This document shows positions 8,955 through 38,554 of a stretch of DNA of 64,000 nt, one piece after another. The stretch lies in the sequence record NC_054909.1. The stretch is one strand, 5' to 3'. The translations under genes and the position numbers were made by a program. The DNA comes from Escherichia phage EC121. The notes under the pieces are model-generated. The model did not search any database. It was not told the DNA's origin and saw only the letters and a list, made by a program, of their open reading frames with translations. Each line of letters begins with the position of its first letter. Positions within the stretch are counted from its first letter, which is position 1.

Positions 8955-9278
8955 TTAGTCTTCTATGATATCTCTATCATATCCAAGTGAAATGAGAGTT
9001 TCTTTGAAGTGTTTAATGTTCTTTTGTCTAGAATCATTAATGAAAATGACTGGATAACGAATGTTAAGAGATGTAAATCCAGCGCGTTTAGCAAGAGATA
9101 CAATCAGTGGACGATCATACTCGATCTTACCATTATTTGTAAGAACTTTATAGAAAGTAAAAGGAGCATTGAGCTCCTTTAGAAGTTTTGTAACTGATTG
9201 ACATCCAGGACAACGACCAACTTCATCTGGAATTCCATAGACTTCAATCTTATTCTTTAAGTTCGAGTTTTGTTCCAC
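8955..9278 (-). CDS. NrdH/glutaredoxin-like redoxin (CPGC active site)
   Basis: thioredoxin-fold motif VYGIPDEVGRCPGCQ; no in-frame ATG after upstream stop, GTG at 9278 with AAGGAA RBS proposed. Confidence 0.55.
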   Translation of the reverse strand: MEQNSNLKNKIEVYGIPDEVGRCPGCQSVTKLLKELNAPFTFYKVLTNNGKIEYDRPLIVSLAKRAGFTSLNIRYPVIFINDSRQKNIKHFKETLISLGYDRDIIED

Positions 9279-31404: not shown

Positions 31405-31878
31405 TTATTTGAACGATTTAACGTACTGAATAGAACCCTTACTATTCACGAAAGCGATTTTACCATTTTTGTTATACATGGTAGCAGTACGTTGATAACC
31501 ATAAGTTTGTTTACCAGATTGATAACCAACTAATGCAAAATTATCTTCACCCATTTTATTCTGCTTAGCGCGAATGCGTTCATGGCCATGTGCCATAAGA
31601 ACCTTAGCATCACCCGTTGCAATGGATCTACGAGTTTTTTCATCTTCAACTGTATTAACAAAGTCGTCAAATGAATCAAATTTAGCATGAGATTTATTAT
31701 ACAGTTTTCCATCTACTGCATAATTATATCCTTGTACATCCATCTCAACTTCTGTACCGTCATCCAATACAGCAGTGATTTTCTGTCCTTTTTTAAATTT
31801 CAAAAGATCAGTAAAAGATTCAGCAATAATTTGAGAATTAATAGCTGCTTCAGTAATAAATTCTTGATATGTTTTCAT
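31405..31878 (-). CDS. capsid internal protein (IPIII-like)
   Basis: N-terminal capsid targeting sequence MKTYQEFITE. Confidence 0.65.
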   Translation of the reverse strand: MKTYQEFITEAAINSQIIAESFTDLLKFKKGQKITAVLDDGTEVEMDVQGYNYAVDGKLYNKSHAKFDSFDDFVNTVEDEKTRRSIATGDAKVLMAHGHERIRAKQNKMGEDNFALVGYQSGKQTYGYQRTATMYNKNGKIAFVNSKGSIQYVKSFK

Positions 31879-31894
31879 GTGTATCCTTTAATTT

Positions 31895-32212
31895 TTATTC
31901 TTTAGGGAAGTTTTTAGAATATGCATCATAAAGCTTATTTCCAATACGGCGGAAAACTCTAGCCGCAAAACGATTTTCTGGGTTTTTAATCATGATTTGC
32001 ATCATATAAGTACCCGCGTCAGAAAGAGCTTCTTCATAGTACCCGTTAATTTCTTTAAGAGTCCTACGTTTACCACCAGGACCATCAACAGTGATTTTCC
32101 ATTTACCTGTAGAAGTGCGACTTGGCGGCTCAACTTGTTCAATCCAGATATAACCGCCTTCTACACGTTGTCCTGCAGCAGATTCTGCAATAAATTCTTT
32201 ATACGTTTTCAT
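31895..32212 (-). CDS. capsid internal protein (IPII-like)
   Basis: N-terminal capsid targeting sequence MKTYKEFIAE. Confidence 0.65.
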   Translation of the reverse strand: MKTYKEFIAESAAGQRVEGGYIWIEQVEPPSRTSTGKWKITVDGPGGKRRTLKEINGYYEEALSDAGTYMMQIMIKNPENRFAARVFRRIGNKLYDAYSKNFPKE

Positions 32213-32814: not shown

Positions 32815-33270
32815 TTAAAAGAGGTTGTTCATTATTCGGTAAAGTGAAGGACCCATCACATATTGCCACTGAGTGCGAGGAATAAGAGCAAAAGCATCCA
32901 TCTCTGGAATCATAACGCCATCTTTATTTTCAAAATAAGACTCGCAATGGCAATTTCTGAACATCTCATGCTCTACTGGAATCGTATAATAAAACAACTG
33001 TAGGTCTTTATTACTAGAATATTTAAATACACCTAGGTCTTCTAGAAGGTCTGGATTATAATTGCTAAAACCGGTCTCTTCTAAGCATTCTCTTCGTGCT
33101 GCATCTAATGCGCTTAAATCAGAATTTTCTACACGGCCCTTTGGAATATCCCAACGATGTGCCATCATTCCAGGCTTACGAGAACCAGTAACCCGACCCA
33201 TAAATAAATCTTTATCTTCTGTCATAAAAATAATACCAGCTGATAATGTTTTCATTTTAATTTCCTGCAT
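32815..33270 (-). CDS. nudE: Nudix hydrolase NudE
   Basis: Nudix box GRVENSDLSALDAARRECLEETGF. Confidence 0.85.
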   Translation of the reverse strand: MQEIKMKTLSAGIIFMTEDKDLFMGRVTGSRKPGMMAHRWDIPKGRVENSDLSALDAARRECLEETGFSNYNPDLLEDLGVFKYSSNKDLQLFYYTIPVEHEMFRNCHCESYFENKDGVMIPEMDAFALIPRTQWQYVMGPSLYRIMNNLF

Positions 33271-33740
33271 TCAGTGATAAAGTTATTTAAATTTTGAGTA
33301 TATTTCTTTTCATCAAAAATCTTTTGCTGCCTACGTAACCGCCATGGCATTTCAATGAACACGCACCATATTCCTGATAGTACTGCTGCTGTAAAAATAT
33401 TAACAAGTATAATTAAAAGAATCCAATCTTCCGTTCTGCCTACTGGACTTTCTCCAAAGAAGCAAAATACAAATGATGTCACAGGAAAACTAATAATATA
33501 CCACAGAATAACCTTCTTATCTGTGAACCAATCAGCGTTCGTTAACTTAGCACGACCATTTTGAATACACACGAATTTATCATCTGTTACAGTAGATGGC
33601 TTAACTGCTTGATATCCCATTCTAAACTCCCTAATTAATCGTTTCTTTGTATCTTCAGAACAGCCGCTCCAGTCAACTCTATCGACTGAAATGCCATCGT
33701 CCCCATCATCTAAATCATACCAGCGAGTTTTTAAAATCAT
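33252..33740 (-). CDS. membrane protein, FVxxCRK-tail family member 1
   Basis: two hydrophobic helices, C-terminal NFITECRKLK. Confidence 0.55.
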   Translation of the reverse strand: MILKTRWYDLDDGDDGISVDRVDWSGCSEDTKKRLIREFRMGYQAVKPSTVTDDKFVCIQNGRAKLTNADWFTDKKVILWYIISFPVTSFVFCFFGESPVGRTEDWILLIILVNIFTAAVLSGIWCVFIEMPWRLRRQQKIFDEKKYTQNLNNFITECRKLK

Positions 33741-34111
33741 TTGATTTTCCTACAATCATTCACGAATTCTTTCATTGATTCATTTTCAATATAAGACATG
33801 TAGTTATTATATTCTTTTAATTGTATTTTGTAATCCTTTTTTCTTTGCCAATTTATTTTAAAATTATCATAATGAAAATATAAAATGATACTAAAGAATG
33901 AAAATAATGAAATTGCTATAGTATAATGAAGTTCACTCCAAACTTCTATTATATCTACTATACCGCTGACGTTACTGCGGATGTTTAAAATAATACAGTC
34001 AATCATTAATCCAATAAGACTACCAGCAAGAGCTGCAGCCAACGCCACAGCAAAAATTAAAAATGACTCAGAAAAAGAATATTTGACTTTATTTAGTTTT
34101 GGCTTTTGCAT
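33737..34111 (-). CDS. membrane protein, FVxxCRK-tail family member 2
   Basis: two hydrophobic helices, C-terminal EFVNDCRKIK. Confidence 0.55.
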   Translation of the reverse strand: MQKPKLNKVKYSFSESFLIFAVALAAALAGSLIGLMIDCIILNIRSNVSGIVDIIEVWSELHYTIAISLFSFFSIILYFHYDNFKINWQRKKDYKIQLKEYNNYMSYIENESMKEFVNDCRKIK

Positions 34112-34506
34112 CGTGATTCCTTAACAAATTTCATAATTTCATTAAATTCATACATATTTAGTTTAAGCTGGTGTTCCTTTTTAATCTTTTTACACTGAGC
34201 TTTCCATTCGCGTACGCGTTTACGATAATGTCTTCCTTGATACCAGTATCCTACCCAATTTACAGGTACTAATAAAAGTGGAACTATTAATGGAAGAATT
34301 AGCATTAACACAAGTATTTCGCCAGAATCAATATCAGTCATAACATCTAAAACACCTCCAATAATCAATAGAATTACAAATGATATAAGTATAACAGGAC
34401 CTATTAATACATCAGTAGAAATTATCTGACGCTTTAATTCATACTTCAAAGGTTTACTTGGAAGGTATAGTGATGGCTTTGACATATTCTCTACATTCCT
34501 TAACAA
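34093..34506 (-). CDS. membrane protein, FVxxCRK-tail family member 3
   Basis: two hydrophobic helices, C-terminal KFVKESRCK. Confidence 0.55.
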   Translation of the reverse strand: MLRNVENMSKPSLYLPSKPLKYELKRQIISTDVLIGPVILISFVILLIIGGVLDVMTDIDSGEILVLMLILPLIVPLLLVPVNWVGYWYQGRHYRKRVREWKAQCKKIKKEHQLKLNMYEFNEIMKFVKESRCKSQN

Positions 34507-35062
34507 ATTTTTCTAGTAATAAATCGCTTTCAAAATTGGGATTTTCCACTAATTTATCAAAAAGATCATCAACAATAGTCAAAATATTCTTTTTACTAAG
34601 AATACGCTTATTTTCATGCTTCGTTTCAGAATCAACTATAAGAGTAAAGAAATATTTCTTTCCCTGAAATTTTACCGTAGTATCAATATAGAATAAATTT
34701 GACTTTTGTAAATTACGTTTAAACCATGCGTCACTTAAACTATAAACACCGAGATAATCAAAATCGTCGTTTAAATAACAAACTGACCATTCAGGAGAAA
34801 TGAAATCAGTAAATTCAACATCAAAATCACATGTCAATGAATAAATTGATTCAATATTGTTAATAAGTATTCCAGGACGTATTAAAGACTTTTTACCTCT
34901 AGAAAATCTTCCAGAAAGACTTTCATCAGTTTCATATGAAGAACCCCAATAATAATTACGTCCTTCTGCCATACGTTTAAGAGCATTTAATAATTGGTCT
35001 GGAACATCAACTTGTCTTTGGAATTCTTCAAACATTGAATTGAAATCACTTTGCATTTTCAT
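34454..35062 (-). CDS. hypothetical soluble protein with FVxxCRE tail (202 aa)
   Basis: C-terminal EKFVKECREYVK. Confidence 0.55.
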   Translation of the reverse strand: MKMQSDFNSMFEEFQRQVDVPDQLLNALKRMAEGRNYYWGSSYETDESLSGRFSRGKKSLIRPGILINNIESIYSLTCDFDVEFTDFISPEWSVCYLNDDFDYLGVYSLSDAWFKRNLQKSNLFYIDTTVKFQGKKYFFTLIVDSETKHENKRILSKKNILTIVDDLFDKLVENPNFESDLLLEKFVKECREYVKAITIPSK

Positions 35063-35082
35063 TCCTATTTACTCCAAGTAAT

Positions 35083-35098
35083 AGGGGCCGAAGCCCCT
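35083..35098. terminator. GC hairpin (GGGGCCGAAGCCCC), terminator-like, orientation unclear
   Basis: perfect 5-bp GC stem with CGAA loop between two minus-strand genes. Confidence 0.35.
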
Positions 35099-35104
35099 TT
35101 ATCA

Positions 35105-35698
35105 TTATTTCAGAGAATTAATGTATTCCTGAACATCAGCAGAGGTAGTTTCAACCCCAGAAATATTGCCATTAAAGGTTTCAACTCGGGCAAGAGTATC
35201 TTCAATATCAACCTTAGTCAGCGCTGCAATTTCAACTACATCATCAGCAGTACTAATTCCGAGGGCATTCGCGGCGCGAGTTTCACGGATATATTCCAAT
35301 TTAACTGCAAGTTCTTGGCGAGCATCATCTAACTCAACTACTTTCTTGGCGATTTCAATTCGCATTTCAGCATAACCATCAGCTTTAGTAGTCAACTGCT
35401 CAGCTGTTCGACGATATAGTAAACCAAGTTTAGCATGCATTGTTACATCTTGACCTTCCGAAAGAAGCTTGCGAATTTCACGCTCTTTTGATTCGGCCTG
35501 CTTATTCTTTTCGACAATAAGTTCACGAATACGTTTTTCTTCATTAATAGATTTAATAGAAGCAGTTTTTAGATCTTTAATTTTATCAAGTAGTTTTGCT
35601 GCTGCGGCAGTATACTGTTCTTCAACAGATAGATTTTTAGCCATAGCAGAACCAAGTTTAGTGCGAATAAACTCAACAATTTTCTTCAGTGTGTTCAT
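35105..35698 (-). CDS. coiled-coil protein (197 aa), PspA-like architecture (tentative)
   Basis: continuous helical heptad pattern; no catalytic motif. Confidence 0.55.
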
Positions 35699-36310: not shown

Positions 36311-36784
36311 TTATTTGATTTGTTTAGCAGACCAAATGCGGTCTTTAATAATTTTTTGGATGTCTTCAACATACCCAAGAGAGTGAGCATGTGGGTTATC
36401 TTTGAAACTATAAGCACGAGCCAGTTTTTGGCCTTCAGTTTTGATTACTAAAAGCTCTTTAAGAATAGCTTCATATTTGGAGATAATTCCTTTAACAATA
36501 TTTTTCTCTTGTGCGACTTTAGGATCTGCTTTAGGAGCAGGTTTACCTGAAGCCTTTGCAAAAGCAGCGCCAGTAGCAACTAAACTTTTCCAGGCCATAC
36601 TAACTGCATTTCCCGTAAATCCTTCCGCTTTCATGTCGCGTGCGAACTGGAATCGCGATTCATCAGAAGCATCTTTGTAAGAATATTTACCCGCTGCAAT
36701 GGCTGCTTTTGCGACAGCTTGAATTTCGGTGCTAGATGCTTCATTTAACACCGCTTCATTTAAAAATTGAGTATATGATTTCAT
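36311..36784 (-). CDS. putative capsid-targeted internal protein (157 aa)
   Basis: N-terminus MKSYTQFLNE resembles capsid targeting sequence with LxE cleavage motif; own late promoter. Confidence 0.6.
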   Translation of the reverse strand: MKSYTQFLNEAVLNEASSTEIQAVAKAAIAAGKYSYKDASDESRFQFARDMKAEGFTGNAVSMAWKSLVATGAAFAKASGKPAPKADPKVAQEKNIVKGIISKYEAILKELLVIKTEGQKLARAYSFKDNPHAHSLGYVEDIQKIIKDRIWSAKQIK

Positions 36785-37538: not shown

Positions 37539-37614
37539 TGGTCGAGGCAGTAGGGATCGAACCTACGACCCAGGACTTAGAAGGTCCTTGCTCTTCCTTC
37601 TGAGCTATGCCCCG
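37539..37614 (-). tRNA. tRNA-Arg (anticodon TCT), CCA encoded
   Basis: manual cloverleaf: acceptor CGGGGCA/TGCCTCG, anticodon loop CTTCTAA, T-arm GTAGG-TTCGATC-CCTAC. Confidence 0.75.
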
Positions 37615-37618
37615 TAAT

Positions 37619-37694
37619 TGGGGTGACCGATGGGAGTCGAACCCATGACTACGAGAATCACAATCTCGAGTTCTACCAACTGAACTACGGCCAC
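37619..37694 (-). tRNA. tRNA-His (anticodon GTG), CCA encoded, no encoded G-1
   Basis: acceptor GTGGCCG/CGGTCAC, discriminator C, anticodon stem CGAGA/TCTCG loop TTGTGAT. Confidence 0.65.
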
Positions 37695-37808
37695 ATTAAT
37701 ACCTACTCCAACAATCATGATGTCTTCACACGAAATTAAGAGAAGAGTGATCAGTTCAACCCCTATAATCGCGTCAAGTAGATATTAATGTGACAGTTGT
37801 CACAAATT

Positions 37809-37883
37809 TGGCGGACGTGATAGGATTCGAACCTATAACCAATCGCTTAACAGGCGATCGCTCTGCCATTGAGCTACACATCC
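37809..37883 (-). tRNA. tRNA-Asn (anticodon GTT), CCA encoded
   Basis: acceptor GGATGTG/CACGTCC, anticodon loop CTGTTAA, T-loop TTCGAAT. Confidence 0.7.
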
Positions 37884-37887
37884 AAAT

Positions 37888-37974
37888 TGGTGGGGAGTGA
37901 TGGAGTCGAACCACCCGAGTCGCAATGACAATGAATTTACAGTCCACACCGCTACCTCTACGGGATAACTCCCC
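37888..37974 (-). tRNA. tRNA-Tyr (anticodon GTA), long variable arm, CCA encoded
   Basis: acceptor GGGGAGT/ACTCCCC, anticodon loop CTGTAAA, 87 nt type II. Confidence 0.6.
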
Positions 37975-37981
37975 CTTAATT

Positions 37982-38056
37982 TGGTGGCCCTGGGTGGAAT
38001 TGAACCACCATCTGGCGATTATGAGTCGCTTGCTTGAACCTTCCAGCTACAGGGCC
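37982..38056 (-). tRNA. tRNA with CAT anticodon (Ile-lysidine type or Met), CCA encoded
   Basis: acceptor GGCCCTG/CAGGGCC, anticodon arm CGACTCATAATCGC as in Ile2-type tRNAs. Confidence 0.7.
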
Positions 38057-38057
38057 T

Positions 38058-38133
38058 TGGTGCTGATTGACGGAATCGAACCGCCGACATCCTCATTACA
38101 AGTGAGGTGCTCTACCTACTGAGCTAAATCAGC
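38058..38133 (-). tRNA. tRNA-Thr (anticodon TGT), CCA encoded
   Basis: acceptor GCTGATT/AATCAGC, anticodon stem CCTCA/TGAGG loop CTTGTAA. Confidence 0.75.
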
Positions 38134-38138
38134 AAAAC

Positions 38139-38228
38139 TGGCGGAGGCGATAGGATTTGAACCTATGAGTCGCCGGAGCGACTGCCGGTTTTCAAGACCG
38201 GTGCATTAAACCACTCTGCCACGCCTCC
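38139..38228 (-). tRNA. tRNA-Ser (anticodon TGA), long variable arm, CCA encoded
   Basis: acceptor GGAGGCG/CGCCTCC, anticodon stem CCGGT/ACCGG loop CTTGAAA, 90 nt. Confidence 0.75.
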
Positions 38229-38230
38229 AG

Positions 38231-38304
38231 TCTCCATACAAGGATTTGAACCTACGACATTCTGCTCCCAAAGCAGACGCTCTACCAAACTGAGCTACAC
38301 GGAG
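38231..38304 (-). tRNA. tRNA-Pro (anticodon TGG), no encoded CCA, 2 nt from tRNA-Ser
   Basis: anticodon stem TCTGC/GCAGA loop TTTGGGA; acceptor CTCCGTG/TATGGAG with wobble pairs. Confidence 0.65.
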
Positions 38305-38314
38305 TAAATTAAAT

Positions 38315-38388
<74 letters not shown>

Positions 38389-38393
38389 AAATT

Positions 38394-38480
38394 TGGTGCG
38401 AGAAGTGGGACTCGAACCCACAAGGAAATAATTCCGCAGCATTTTAAGTGCTGTGCCTTTACCAATTTGACCATTCTCGC
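38394..38480 (-). tRNA. tRNA-Leu (anticodon TAA), long variable arm, CCA encoded
   Basis: acceptor GCGAGAA/TTCTCGC, anticodon stem CAGCA/TGCTG loop CTTAAAA. Confidence 0.75.
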
Positions 38481-38481
38481 G

Positions 38482-38554
38482 CTGGGAATAAAGGACTCGA
38501 ACCTTTGCATCTAGCAGTCAAAGTGCTATGCCTTACCAACTTGGCTAATTCCCA
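38482..38554 (-). tRNA. tRNA-Gln (anticodon TTG), no encoded CCA, 1 nt from tRNA-Leu
   Basis: acceptor TGGGAAT/ATTCCCA, anticodon stem TAGCA/TGCTA loop CTTTGAC. Confidence 0.7.

Follow-up and report, generated by a model that had tools for sequence, protein, structure and literature searches.

The e.5 to e.2 array and its surroundings

The window, that is, the whole stretch of 64,000 nucleotides that was analysed, belongs to a Tequatrovirus, and four consecutive minus-strand genes in it correspond to T4 e.2, e.3, e.4 and e.5. Their ORFs overlap one another by 4 to 32 nt and leave no intergenic space. Immediately upstream of these genes lies e.6 (Y06Q, phrog_1203; 35105..35698, minus strand), whose product of 197 aa is predicted to be Vipp1/PspA/ESCRT-III-like. 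The first gene after e.6 is e.5 (T4 Y06P family, PF26876; 34454..35062, minus strand), identified with T4 e.5 by synteny and 97% identity; it encodes a soluble protein of 202 aa (phrog_2607) that bears a C-terminal tail and ends in ...KFVKECREYVKAITIPSK. It is followed by e.4 (Y06O, PF26873; 34093..34485, minus strand), which shares 32 nt with e.5 and 19 nt with e.3 and whose protein (130 aa from the ATG, phrog_2604) has two transmembrane helices and then a long basic, presumably cytoplasmic tail ending in ...KFVKESRCKSQN. The e.3 protein (Y06N, phrog_2330; 33737..34111, minus strand; 124 aa) consists of two transmembrane helices and a tail that ends in EFVNDCRKIK. In e.2 (Y06M, PF26896, phrog_2203; 33252..33740, minus strand; 162 aa) a soluble domain takes up roughly the first 75 aa, followed by two transmembrane helices and a tail that ends in NFITECRKLK. 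By hydropathy, e.2, e.3 and e.4 have two hydrophobic helices apiece and e.5 has none, in agreement with the initial annotation, which had described three small membrane proteins and a soluble fourth.

Directly downstream of e.2 lies nudE (Nudix hydrolase, PF00293, E=9.6e-14; 32815..33255, minus strand), with which the run of translationally overlapping genes ends; it has no tail and its tail score is at background. The sole hairpin of the array, a UUCG-loop hairpin (AGGGGC-TTCG-GCCCCT; 35083..35098, minus strand) that is annotated as a terminator in close relatives, separates the stop of e.6 from the start of e.5. At 37539-38554 there are 11 clustered tRNA genes. The array had been placed in a variable zone between nudE and the tRNA genes; the position is right, but the array is tied to e.6 and is not free-standing.

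Scans of e.2 to e.5 against Pfam, NCBIfam and PHROG returned only families of unknown function, and a literature search for e.2 to e.5 or Y06M to Y06P gave nothing relevant. A phmmer search of e.5 against 1.84 billion representatives gave six matches (Tequatrovirus, Mosigvirus, fragments and one spurious repeat protein) without a functional lead. It may be noted that NCBI names some e.3 and e.4 clusters rhodanese/sulfurtransferase. This name was rejected, no rhodanese or sulfurtransferase model in Pfam-A or NCBIfam being matched; a rhodanese is defined by a domain with a C-R-x-G-x-[RT] active-site loop, and e.3 and e.4 are two-helix membrane proteins of 124-130 aa.

The C-terminal tail in the window and across Straboviridae

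The C-termini of e.2, e.3, e.4 and e.5 all carry F-[VI]-x-[ED]-[C/S]-R. The motif reads FVKECR in e.5 (34490..34507, minus strand; TTT GTT AAG GAA TGT AGA), FVNDCR in e.3 (33749..33766, minus strand) and FITECR in e.2 (33264..33281, minus strand), and e.4 has a degenerate member, FVKESR followed by CK (34111..34128, minus strand). In the six frames of the 64-kb window F[VI].[ED]CR occurs 3 times, always within array genes, and 4 of the 7 occurrences of F[VI]..[CS]R are the array tails. With a position matrix whose training set left out all Tequatrovirus and Mosigvirus tails, e.2, e.5 and e.3 take ranks 1, 2 and 4 among 37,591 window positions. When each protein was shuffled in 20,000 trials, the observed tail score was reached 0 times for e.2, 4 times for e.3 and 2 times for e.5. 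For e.4 the shuffle p is 0.1; it is the weakest member because its Cys is displaced by two residues, with Ser at the Cys position itself, and its orthologues in other genera have I, V or M there. The tail motif is neither chance nor composition. The initial annotation had claimed a common C-terminal motif in four genes, with which the ORFs, six-frame counts, matrix and shuffles agree; low-complexity composition as its cause is excluded by the matrix and shuffle tests, whereas a shared Cys at the motif position holds for e.2, e.3 and e.5 and fails for e.4.

The motif is recovered in relatives. A core hydrophobic-x-x-F-[IV]-x-x-C-[RK] is present near the C-terminus of orthologues and paralogues in 13 Straboviridae genera and is borne by small two-helix membrane proteins and by soluble proteins; two-helix membrane proteins are found beside e.6 also in all other genera sampled. 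With leave-one-genus-out matrices, the tails top all six-frame positions in every genus. The e.5 family covers 11 genera, and outside Mosigvirus its members are only 11-21% identical to the window e.5, the sole invariant columns among 13 sequences being F186 and C190 of the motif. Without the tail, the homology of the e.5 body is weak, yet above all decoys. Between Tequatrovirus and Mosigvirus the identity is 88% for e.6 as against 46% for e.5, 53% for e.4, 36% for e.3 and 27% for e.2, and the tails are retained despite this divergence. Within a genus F, C and R of the tail are invariant: the e.2 motif is the same in 43 cluster representatives, and for e.3 a set of 39 cluster representatives has the three residues fixed and the x position variable. 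After the motif, e.5-like proteins have 5 to 26 variable residues. Most genomes have two to five Cys-bearing tails, and RB43, EBPL and SW69-9 have a single tail-bearing gene each.

The codons of the tails vary. F is encoded by TTT or TTC, C by TGT or TGC, I/V by ATT, ATC, ATA, GTT, GTG or GTA and R by AGA, AGG, CGT, CGA or CGC, and the distance from the Cys codon to the next ATG ranges from 5 to 71 nt, some tail genes then being followed by a gap. These varied codons and distances show that the motif is selected at the level of the protein. As to conformation, the AF2 model of e.5 from its single sequence (pLDDT 39.5) is unusable for a fold search and places a helix at 180-196 with low confidence; the hydrophobic moment of the 12-residue core indicates moderate amphipathicity (shuffle p 0.02-0.36). 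The tail is probably helical and, by the positive-inside rule, probably cytoplasmic. From the second transmembrane helix to the motif there are about 21, 35 and 43 residues in e.2, e.3 and e.4, and no common geometry emerges from such unequal distances.

The e.6 protein and the genes downstream of it

The AF2 model of e.6, also from a single sequence, has a pLDDT of 74.7 (above 90 across residues 40-130) and shows a helical hairpin (H2-80 and H86-145). On Foldseek its ten best PDB matches are all Vipp1 (E 3.4e-4 to 1.3e-2), with full-length alignments at a TM of about 0.5. At the sequence level e.6 gives weak colinear matches to Vipp1 and PF04012; phmmer of e.6 against PDB found no match, and hhalign of the e.6 family with E. 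coli PspA was not significant. The predicted fold of e.6 is Vipp1/PspA-like, and homology of phrog_1203 to PspA has been reported (Gendre et al. 2022, PMC9409062). The C-terminus of e.6 itself, VQEYINSLK, has the same spacing as the tails but is not counted as a member of the class (shuffle p=0.16 in the tail matrix).

In 34 of 36 IMG/VR loci the first ORF after e.6 bears the strict motif; in the remaining two this ORF is a truncated e.5, with a frameshift in one of them (L027). In the same loci the motif is present in 87 of 322 ORFs downstream of e.6 and in 0 of 264 upstream, so in the loci examined only genes downstream of e.6 carry it. Because these loci are not independent of one another, part of this synteny could be due to shared ancestry. 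The e.6/e.5 pair is nevertheless intact in differing neighbourhoods, near nrdD in RB43, EBPL and SW69-9 and also in ZPAH1.

A variant of the arrangement is found in Ackermannviridae (three named genera and XDRKpn-1), where two or three membrane proteins come after the e.6 homologue and share I-[VI]-x-x-A-R near their C-termini; for aagejoakim and XDRKpn-1, the one pair that was aligned, the overall identity of these proteins is 26-31%. On this sequence evidence the variant appears to be an independent replicate of a shared tail downstream of e.6. The Cys position is thus occupied by Ala in Ackermannviridae and by V, M, I or S in e.4-like proteins, and thiol chemistry may therefore be irrelevant or lineage-specific. 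It may also be noted that the e.6 protein has no Cys, so a disulfide to e.6 cannot explain the strong preference for Cys in the tails.

Possible roles of the tail and comparison with known systems

Being family-wide and always just downstream of e.6, the tail is probably the common docking handle of an undescribed membrane module. The initial annotation had offered a common partner or a processing signal; the common partner appears the best supported, given the signs of protein-level selection, the unrelated folds that carry the motif and its restriction to genes downstream of e.6, and nothing backs the processing signal. The most likely partner would be e.6, as we tentatively suggest on the model of PspC binding PspA. 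The genes e.5, e.4, e.3 and e.2 would then form a module behind the Vipp1/PspA-like e.6 throughout the T4 family (Straboviridae). The tail would be a short cytoplasmic helix, hydrophobic(-3)-x-x-F(0)-[IV](+1)-x-x-C(+4)-[RK](+5) and then basic residues, through which exchangeable small two-helix inner-membrane proteins and the soluble e.5 bind one common partner. During infection the module may direct an ESCRT-III-like polymer of the phage to the inner membrane of the host.

Some of the similarity does belong to the DNA, since the K-E and R-K codons are the Shine-Dalgarno or the start of the overlapping next gene, a point that the initial annotation had missed. A Shine-Dalgarno lies inside all four window tails. 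In e.5 the AAG GAA of K-E is the Shine-Dalgarno 11 nt upstream of the e.4 ATG; in e.4 the same AAGGAA serves e.3, and CG-ATG-C contains the e.3 start codon. After the e.3 motif AGG AAA ATC AAA TGA, and after the e.2 motif AGG AAA TTA AAA TGA, combine a Shine-Dalgarno at working distance with an ATGA stop/start overlap with e.2 and nudE, respectively, so that the codons for the CRK[LI]K ends of these two proteins contain both signals, and AAR GAR is found at both x positions in about a quarter of all tails. Even so, it is very improbable that the whole similarity is a nucleotide by-product of the next gene's Shine-Dalgarno and start or of another signal in the RNA, for instance a RegA site. The codons for F, I/V, C and R vary widely among synonyms, the Shine-Dalgarno occupies different motif positions in different genes, and an embedded ribosome-binding site was rejected as the motif's cause because the residues are not fixed at a constant distance from the next start; such signals cover the x positions, which vary, and the last residues of e.2 and e.3, but leave the core unexplained. 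The RegA operator, AAAAUUGUUAUGUAA, resembles AAATTTGTTAAGGAA in e.4 and e.5, and that reading was dropped as the codons are not kept between genera. Recombination, too, makes use of the tail DNA, as an in-frame joint. The e.2 body is present in 440 of 504 Tequatrovirus records and missing in about 64 (cleanly absent from PP01, PST, UFV-AREG1 and others, and disrupted in T4 itself). In the best 25 listed records, each of them a single BLAST piece, the e.3 tail is a hybrid CRKLK that leads directly into nudE, the crossover falling within TGCAGGAAA with the frame and ribosome-binding site intact. Lineages differ in the gene that comes after e.3, which can be e.2, nudE or a phrog_899 gene. We find it hardly credible, however, that the DNA is kept mainly as a linker for in-frame swap or loss of cassettes, as a coding analogue of PeSLs. 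The tail DNA identity is about 9 nt and is lost from one genus to another although the peptide is retained, a PeSL is a promoter and stem-loop unit lying between genes (PMC2839356) whereas the array junctions have no intergenic space, and the use in recombination looks like a consequence rather than a cause.

Among the readings at the protein level, one holds that the tails bind each other and not e.6, e.5 and the membrane proteins forming a small helical bundle with a core layer of Cys as a metal site or redox-sensitive contact. The hydrophobic residues at -3, 0, +1, +4 and +7 have an a/d-like spacing, Cys is invariant in the e.5 family beside a basic residue, and most genomes have several Cys-bearing tails. 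We nevertheless consider it unlikely in view of the genomes with one tail-bearing gene, the Ala in place of Cys in Ackermannviridae, the very different distances from motif to membrane and a hydrophobic stretch of just two to three helical turns. There is also a slim chance that the tail is a targeting, processing or turnover signal for a host or phage enzyme, either a ClpX-type basic degron or an I-x-E site as for the T4 prohead protease. The tails are C-terminal and basic (CRKLK, CRKIK, CRRARK) and may resemble known degrons, and the tail matrix cross-matches the N-terminal capsid-targeting MKTY[KQ]EFI[TA]E of internal proteins. But Glu at +3 is missing in many members (FINYCR, FIQGCR, FISRCR), the motif of e.5-like proteins is followed by residues that vary in number and kind, and membrane proteins are unlikely as capsid cargo. 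Mere inheritance, in which tandem paralogues (a two-helix membrane module with its tail) have diverged and the tail is the slowest-decaying remnant without a role, is quite improbable as well, although profile comparisons put the best local alignment on the tail in 5 of 6 pairs (P 2e-4 to 0.13). With hhalign of e.2, e.3 and e.4 the tail alone aligns, or the tail and the juxtamembrane part for e.3/e.4 (33 columns, P=6e-4); e.3 weakly matches the e.4 family phrog_2604 (E=0.006), a Mosigvirus protein of 101 aa weakly matches the C-terminal part of e.2 (E=0.0019), and a natural e.4/e.2 chimera exists, which fits such a descent. Against a remnant without a role, the motif persists while the remainder drops to 11-27% identity, which requires purifying selection on the motif; it is also found on soluble proteins that differ in size and predicted secondary structure, and another phage family has a parallel variant. 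The docking explanation does not conflict with a common origin of the membrane module.

The analysis groups five T4 genes, which like many others in T4 are still without a function after decades of work, as one conserved PspA/Vipp1-like protein (e.6) and variable partners with a six-residue handle (e.2 to e.5). If docking to e.6 holds, phages would carry their own membrane-maintenance machinery with interchangeable adaptors, which would bear on how the host membrane is kept energised against abortive-infection systems, and the range of PspA/ESCRT-III partners would widen. The motif is a practical marker for annotating dozens of orphan genes in Straboviridae genomes. A wider proposal, which we put forward as a rather doubtful possibility, is that T4-like phages and, independently, Ackermannviridae encode their own ESCRT-III/PspA-type system, in which a Vipp1-like e.6 polymer is brought to the host inner membrane by a quickly evolving, exchangeable set of small membrane adaptors and the soluble e.5, all plugging in by a lineage-specific docking helix (F-I-x-x-C-R in Straboviridae, I-V-x-x-A-R in Ackermannviridae). 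Such a system would bring a new class of partners for PspA and, for viral proteins of the ESCRT-III-like kind, the first adaptor code, and it may protect membrane energisation against depolarising defence systems or superinfection.

The closest likeness is to the Psp and Lia systems (PspA with PspB/PspC; LiaH with LiaI), where, as here, a gene of the PspA/Vipp1 fold adjoins genes of small inner-membrane proteins; PSP systems recurrently couple PspA with small transmembrane partners (PMC11237479). The array differs in being phage-encoded, in having several interchangeable partners and a soluble one, in a common C-terminal motif that is undescribed for Psp partners and in having no regulator such as PspF or LiaRS, and no PspB, PspC, LiaI/LiaF or PspM model was matched by e.2 to e.4 when Pfam-A and NCBIfam were scanned up to E=1. 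The window e.6 falls into phrog_1203, the PHROG treated by Gendre et al. 2022 (PMC9409062). In the parts of that paper concerned with it, the PspA homology comes from HHpred and an anti-abortive-infection role is proposed; these parts deal with one Kuttervirus gene and are silent on downstream genes or a shared tail. PeSL cassettes are short repeats at gene boundaries in hyperplastic regions, where insertions, deletions and replacements occur (2010, PMC2839356). The array resembles them in that recombination between its repeats yields gene gain and loss, but PeSLs are non-coding and lie between genes, whereas the array repeat is coding, about 9 nt long and kept as a peptide. PeSLs are defined by an intergenic sigma-70-like early promoter with a stem-loop terminator; the array was not classed with them, as its genes overlap and its sole hairpin lies ahead of e.5. 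The T4 capsid targeting sequence MKTYQEFIAE is also one short peptide on highly diverse proteins of the same region, with a local likeness of EFI[AT]E to the tail [NR]FI[AT]EC. It stands at the N-terminus, from which the prohead protease cleaves it after the Glu of an (L/I)-x-E site; homology was rejected since the tails stand at the C-terminus, chiefly of membrane proteins, and often lack Glu at +3. By analogy, the tail may be likened to the MIMs of ESCRT-III, which lie on the ESCRT-III protein and bind MIT domains: both would be a terminal helix of two to three turns with few fixed hydrophobic positions that links proteins to a polymer of the ESCRT-III type, but the array motif sits on the putative partners and not on the ESCRT-III-like e.6.

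Genes of the region and the tail motif

The window belongs to a Tequatrovirus; region 33000-35300 is 97.4% identical to Escherichia phage vB_EcoM_G29, with 504 matching phage records. Using synteny with T4 (NC_000866) and ime09, we named the four minus-strand genes e.2 (33252-33740, 162 aa; Pfam Y06M), e.3 (33737-34111, 124 aa), e.4 (34093-34485, 130 aa counted from ATG; Pfam Y06O) and e.5 (34454-35062, 202 aa; Pfam Y06P), with nudE (32815-33255, minus strand) downstream of e.2, e.6 (35105-35698, minus strand; family phrog_1203) upstream of e.5, and 11 tRNA genes at 37539-38554. The Pfam labels for e.2, e.4 and e.5 merely echo uncharacterised T4 proteins, and PHROGs, Pfam-A and NCBIfam gave no functional assignment for e.2-e.5. 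NCBI and several phage records label e.3/e.4 'sulfurtransferase' (protein clusters P0026, P0048-P0050, P0112, P0130), a name that no Pfam or NCBIfam model supports. For e.6, the labels 'host specificity protein' and 'tail completion protein' are found in other records; they clash with the Vipp1-like model described below. Between the stop codon of e.6 and the ribosome-binding site of e.5 there is a GC-rich hairpin (35083-35098) whose loop is UUCG; it is an annotated terminator in close relatives, and the coding strand has no T-run after it.

The C-termini of e.2-e.5 read exactly as in the initial annotation, and hydropathy gave two hydrophobic helices apiece in e.2-e.4, whereas e.5 has none. 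A search of the window in all six reading frames found F[VI].[ED]CR 3 times, only in the tail genes, and F[VI]..[CS]R 7 times, 4 of these being the e.2-e.5 tails. A position matrix trained on other genera only, leaving out Tequatrovirus and Mosigvirus tails, ranked e.2 1st, e.5 2nd and e.3 4th among 37,591 positions in the window, and shuffles reached at least the observed score 0 (e.2), 4 (e.3) and 2 (e.5) times in 20,000 trials each. The observation of a shared tail stands, its weak member being e.4 (shuffle p 0.1), which has Ser where the others have Cys.

Conservation across phages

In the regions fetched around e.6 homologues of other phages, the motif was recovered beyond Tequatrovirus in Mosigvirus, Dhakavirus, Kanagawavirus, Jiaodavirus, Moonvirus, Karamvirus, Kagamiyamavirus, Pseudotevenvirus, Biquartavirus, Ishigurovirus, Roskildevirus and Muldoonvirus. 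Between one and six genes of each genome have its core, [polar]-F/W-[IV]-x-x-[C, less often V/M/I/L/S]-[RK], at most ~30 residues from the C-terminus, the carriers being two-helix membrane proteins, the soluble protein in the e.5 position and small soluble proteins; with leave-one-genus-out matrices the tails were the top matches in every genus. Among Tequatrovirus cluster representatives F, C and R are invariant and the x positions vary. Between Tequatrovirus and Mosigvirus the identity is 88% for e.6 and 46, 53, 36 and 27% for e.5, e.4, e.3 and e.2, and the tails are kept. A hydrophobic residue is also common at -3 (F being 0), and the hydrophobic spacing (-3, 0, +1, +4, sometimes +7) is compatible with residues along a single side of a short helix; the core has only a moderate hydrophobic moment, and an AF2 model of e.5, of poor quality, has a helix at 180-196. 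The tail matrix also cross-matches the N-terminal capsid targeting sequence (score 15.9 in Jiaodavirus), a resemblance that is probably coincidental; this sequence, MKTY[QK]EFI[AT]E or MKSYTQFLNEA, opens several internal-protein-like genes (31405-31878, 31895-32212 and 36311-36784, minus strand, in the window; 8961-9263 in fetched locus L013).

Proteins in the e.5 position are joined through a chain of full-length BLAST matches. With a body profile built after removing tails and leaving out Tequatrovirus and Mosigvirus, every e.5 outranked all 1,900 six-frame decoys, at weak E-values (0.002-0.03). In a 13-sequence alignment the non-Mosigvirus members are 11-21% identical to the window e.5, and F186 and C190 are the sole invariant columns. 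A frameshift splits e.5 into two ORFs in Yersinia phage ZN18-type contigs (L008 3495-4110, the same as L027) and the first ORF after e.6 in L054 is a truncated 79-aa fragment; therefore e.5 seems dispensable in some lineages. In Mosigvirus BEU50 (L004 3501-3983) a conserved 229-aa protein, found elsewhere in the region in other genera (L014 9164-9853), supplies the C-terminal end (...RNTDRVKKITNEIRVNAQVYLEFPMEGW) to which the first ~100 e.5 residues are joined, and the next gene is directly an e.2-like one with the tail RFITECRNLR.

Ackermannviridae also carry e.6 homologues (~29% identity in aagejoakim and XDRKpn-1). In all four examined, namely Kuttervirus aagejoakim, Klebsiella phage XDRKpn-1, Agtrevirus Gloob and Nezavisimistyvirus Bue1, two or three membrane proteins come after e.6 and have in common a near-C-terminal I-[VI]-x-x-A-R (L022 4632-5374, L023 4637-5367, L063 3652-4373, L062 3693-5217), for example ESIVYRAR, LQIVDKARKRRSK, SIIKQARSRTRQ, GIIEQARK and KIVEQARKEQ. 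The one pair aligned, aagejoakim and XDRKpn-1, keeps it at 26-31% protein identity. This variant was spotted by eye and is looser than the Straboviridae motif, and we weigh it as supporting evidence only. It would be the counterpart, in this lineage, of the tail seen in Straboviridae, and suggests that what the Cys position requires is a small residue, and not a thiol in every lineage.

The e.6 gene and the reading of the tail

Gendre et al. (2022, PMC9409062) reported homology of phrog_1203 to PspA by HHpred. The e.6 sequence gave colinear matches to Vipp1, weak at E 0.3-1.9, one family member matched PF04012 at 3.7e-4, and hhalign of the family against a PspA sequence gave no significant match. 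The single-sequence AF2 model of e.6 (mean pLDDT 74.7) has a confident hairpin (H2-80 and H86-145), and each of its best ten PDB matches is to Vipp1 and spans the full length (E 3.4e-4 to 1.3e-2), with CdvB and CHMP1B ranked lower; e.6 is, on this model, a predicted Vipp1/PspA/ESCRT-III-like protein. At its extreme C-terminus, Y192, S195, L196 and K197 show little or no variation across 11 genera. On collecting 36 IMG/VR loci with an e.6 profile, we found [FWY][IV]xxC[RK] within the last 32 residues of the first ORF after e.6 in 34; the 2 exceptions are truncated e.5 ORFs (L027 being the frameshifted contig). Within 3.5 kb either side of e.6 in these loci, 87 of 322 downstream and 0 of 264 upstream ORFs bear the motif, which are counts and carry no probability as the loci are related. 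The e.6/e.5 adjacency is kept despite a different neighbourhood, the pair lying near nrdD in RB43, EBPL and SW69-9, and in ZPAH1 e.6 is followed by three soluble tail-bearing genes.

The overlaps along the gene run are 32, 19, 4 and 4 nt, and therefore each tail takes in the region where translation of the following gene starts. The K-E codons of e.5 and e.4, AAG GAA, are a Shine-Dalgarno sequence (the e.5 copy 11 nt ahead of the e.4 ATG, the e.4 copy 5 nt ahead of the e.3 ATG), the R-C codons of e.4, CGA TGC, contain the e.3 start codon, and the e.3/e.2 ends, TGY AGG AAA NTN AAA TGA, combine a Shine-Dalgarno sequence with an ATGA stop/start overlap. The tail similarity is thus partly nucleotide-driven, namely in the residues K-E and R-K and in the CRK[LI]K ends, which are identical. 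Across phages, the fixed motif residues draw on every codon family, the distance from the Cys codon to the following ATG ranges from 5 to 71 nt, and the position of the motif relative to the Shine-Dalgarno sequence differs from gene to gene. These comparisons show that the motif core is selected at the protein level; the reading of the tail as a ribosome-binding-site by-product is very improbable.

The N-termini and tails of e.2-e.4 are basic and the loop between their membrane helices is acidic, from which, by the positive-inside rule, we infer that the tails are on the cytoplasmic side. As a short motif at the protein level, the tail occurs on unrelated proteins that are always encoded after a Vipp1/PspA-like gene, so that the most economical reading is a docking helix toward one common partner; we hold this tentatively, at somewhat below even confidence, and infer that the partner would most likely be e.6. 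Assembly of the tails with one another, which the helical face could also serve in genomes with several carriers and which single-carrier genomes do not favour, is unlikely. The initial annotation had offered a processing signal beside a common partner; turnover or processing would suit a basic C-terminal position, and we consider it less likely still. Retention by inheritance alone is equally improbable. Least probable of all is a linker kept for recombination. The genes themselves and the PspA-likeness of phrog_1203 are already on record, and in the searchable literature we found no description of the shared tail, its family-wide conservation or its tie to e.6; we regard the genes as a PSP-like module of phages in which the class of partners and the motif are new, the binding being putative.

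Recombination at the tails

The e.2 body was found in 440 of the 504 Tequatrovirus records, and in ~13% of records a clean deletion has removed e.2 and left e.3 with a hybrid tail, CRKLK. In the best 25 records listed (PP01, PST, UFV-AREG1 and others) this tail leads directly into nudE within a single BLAST piece, the crossover lying inside TGCAGGAAA, which is common to the e.3 and e.2 tails. The gene after e.3 varies by lineage, being e.2, nudE or a phrog_899 gene, and in UFV05-type phages e.2 is fused to the N-terminus of e.4, the joint of this chimera being at the first membrane helix. Overall e.2 is polymorphic among Tequatroviruses, intact in the window (33252-33740) and disrupted in T4 (L001 2473-2961), with further states at L008 4777-4815 and L021 3001-3321.

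Small soluble paralogues (phrog_899 and phrog_4882) form another tandem array, which adjoins the tail-bearing genes in several genera (L003 4790-5584, L011 6522-7766, L012 6716-8330, L014 7078-7846, L015 6249-6829, L018 1963-2518) and is absent from this Tequatrovirus window. Its C-terminal signature is G-x-W-[VIF]-[ST]-S-S-x-x-C-COOH, with ends such as WVSSSALC, WVASSHTC, WVSSSYSC, WFTSSMSC and WYPSSC.

Compared with PeSL-mediated shuffling (PMC2839356), recombination at the tails is alike in outcome but unlike in anatomy.
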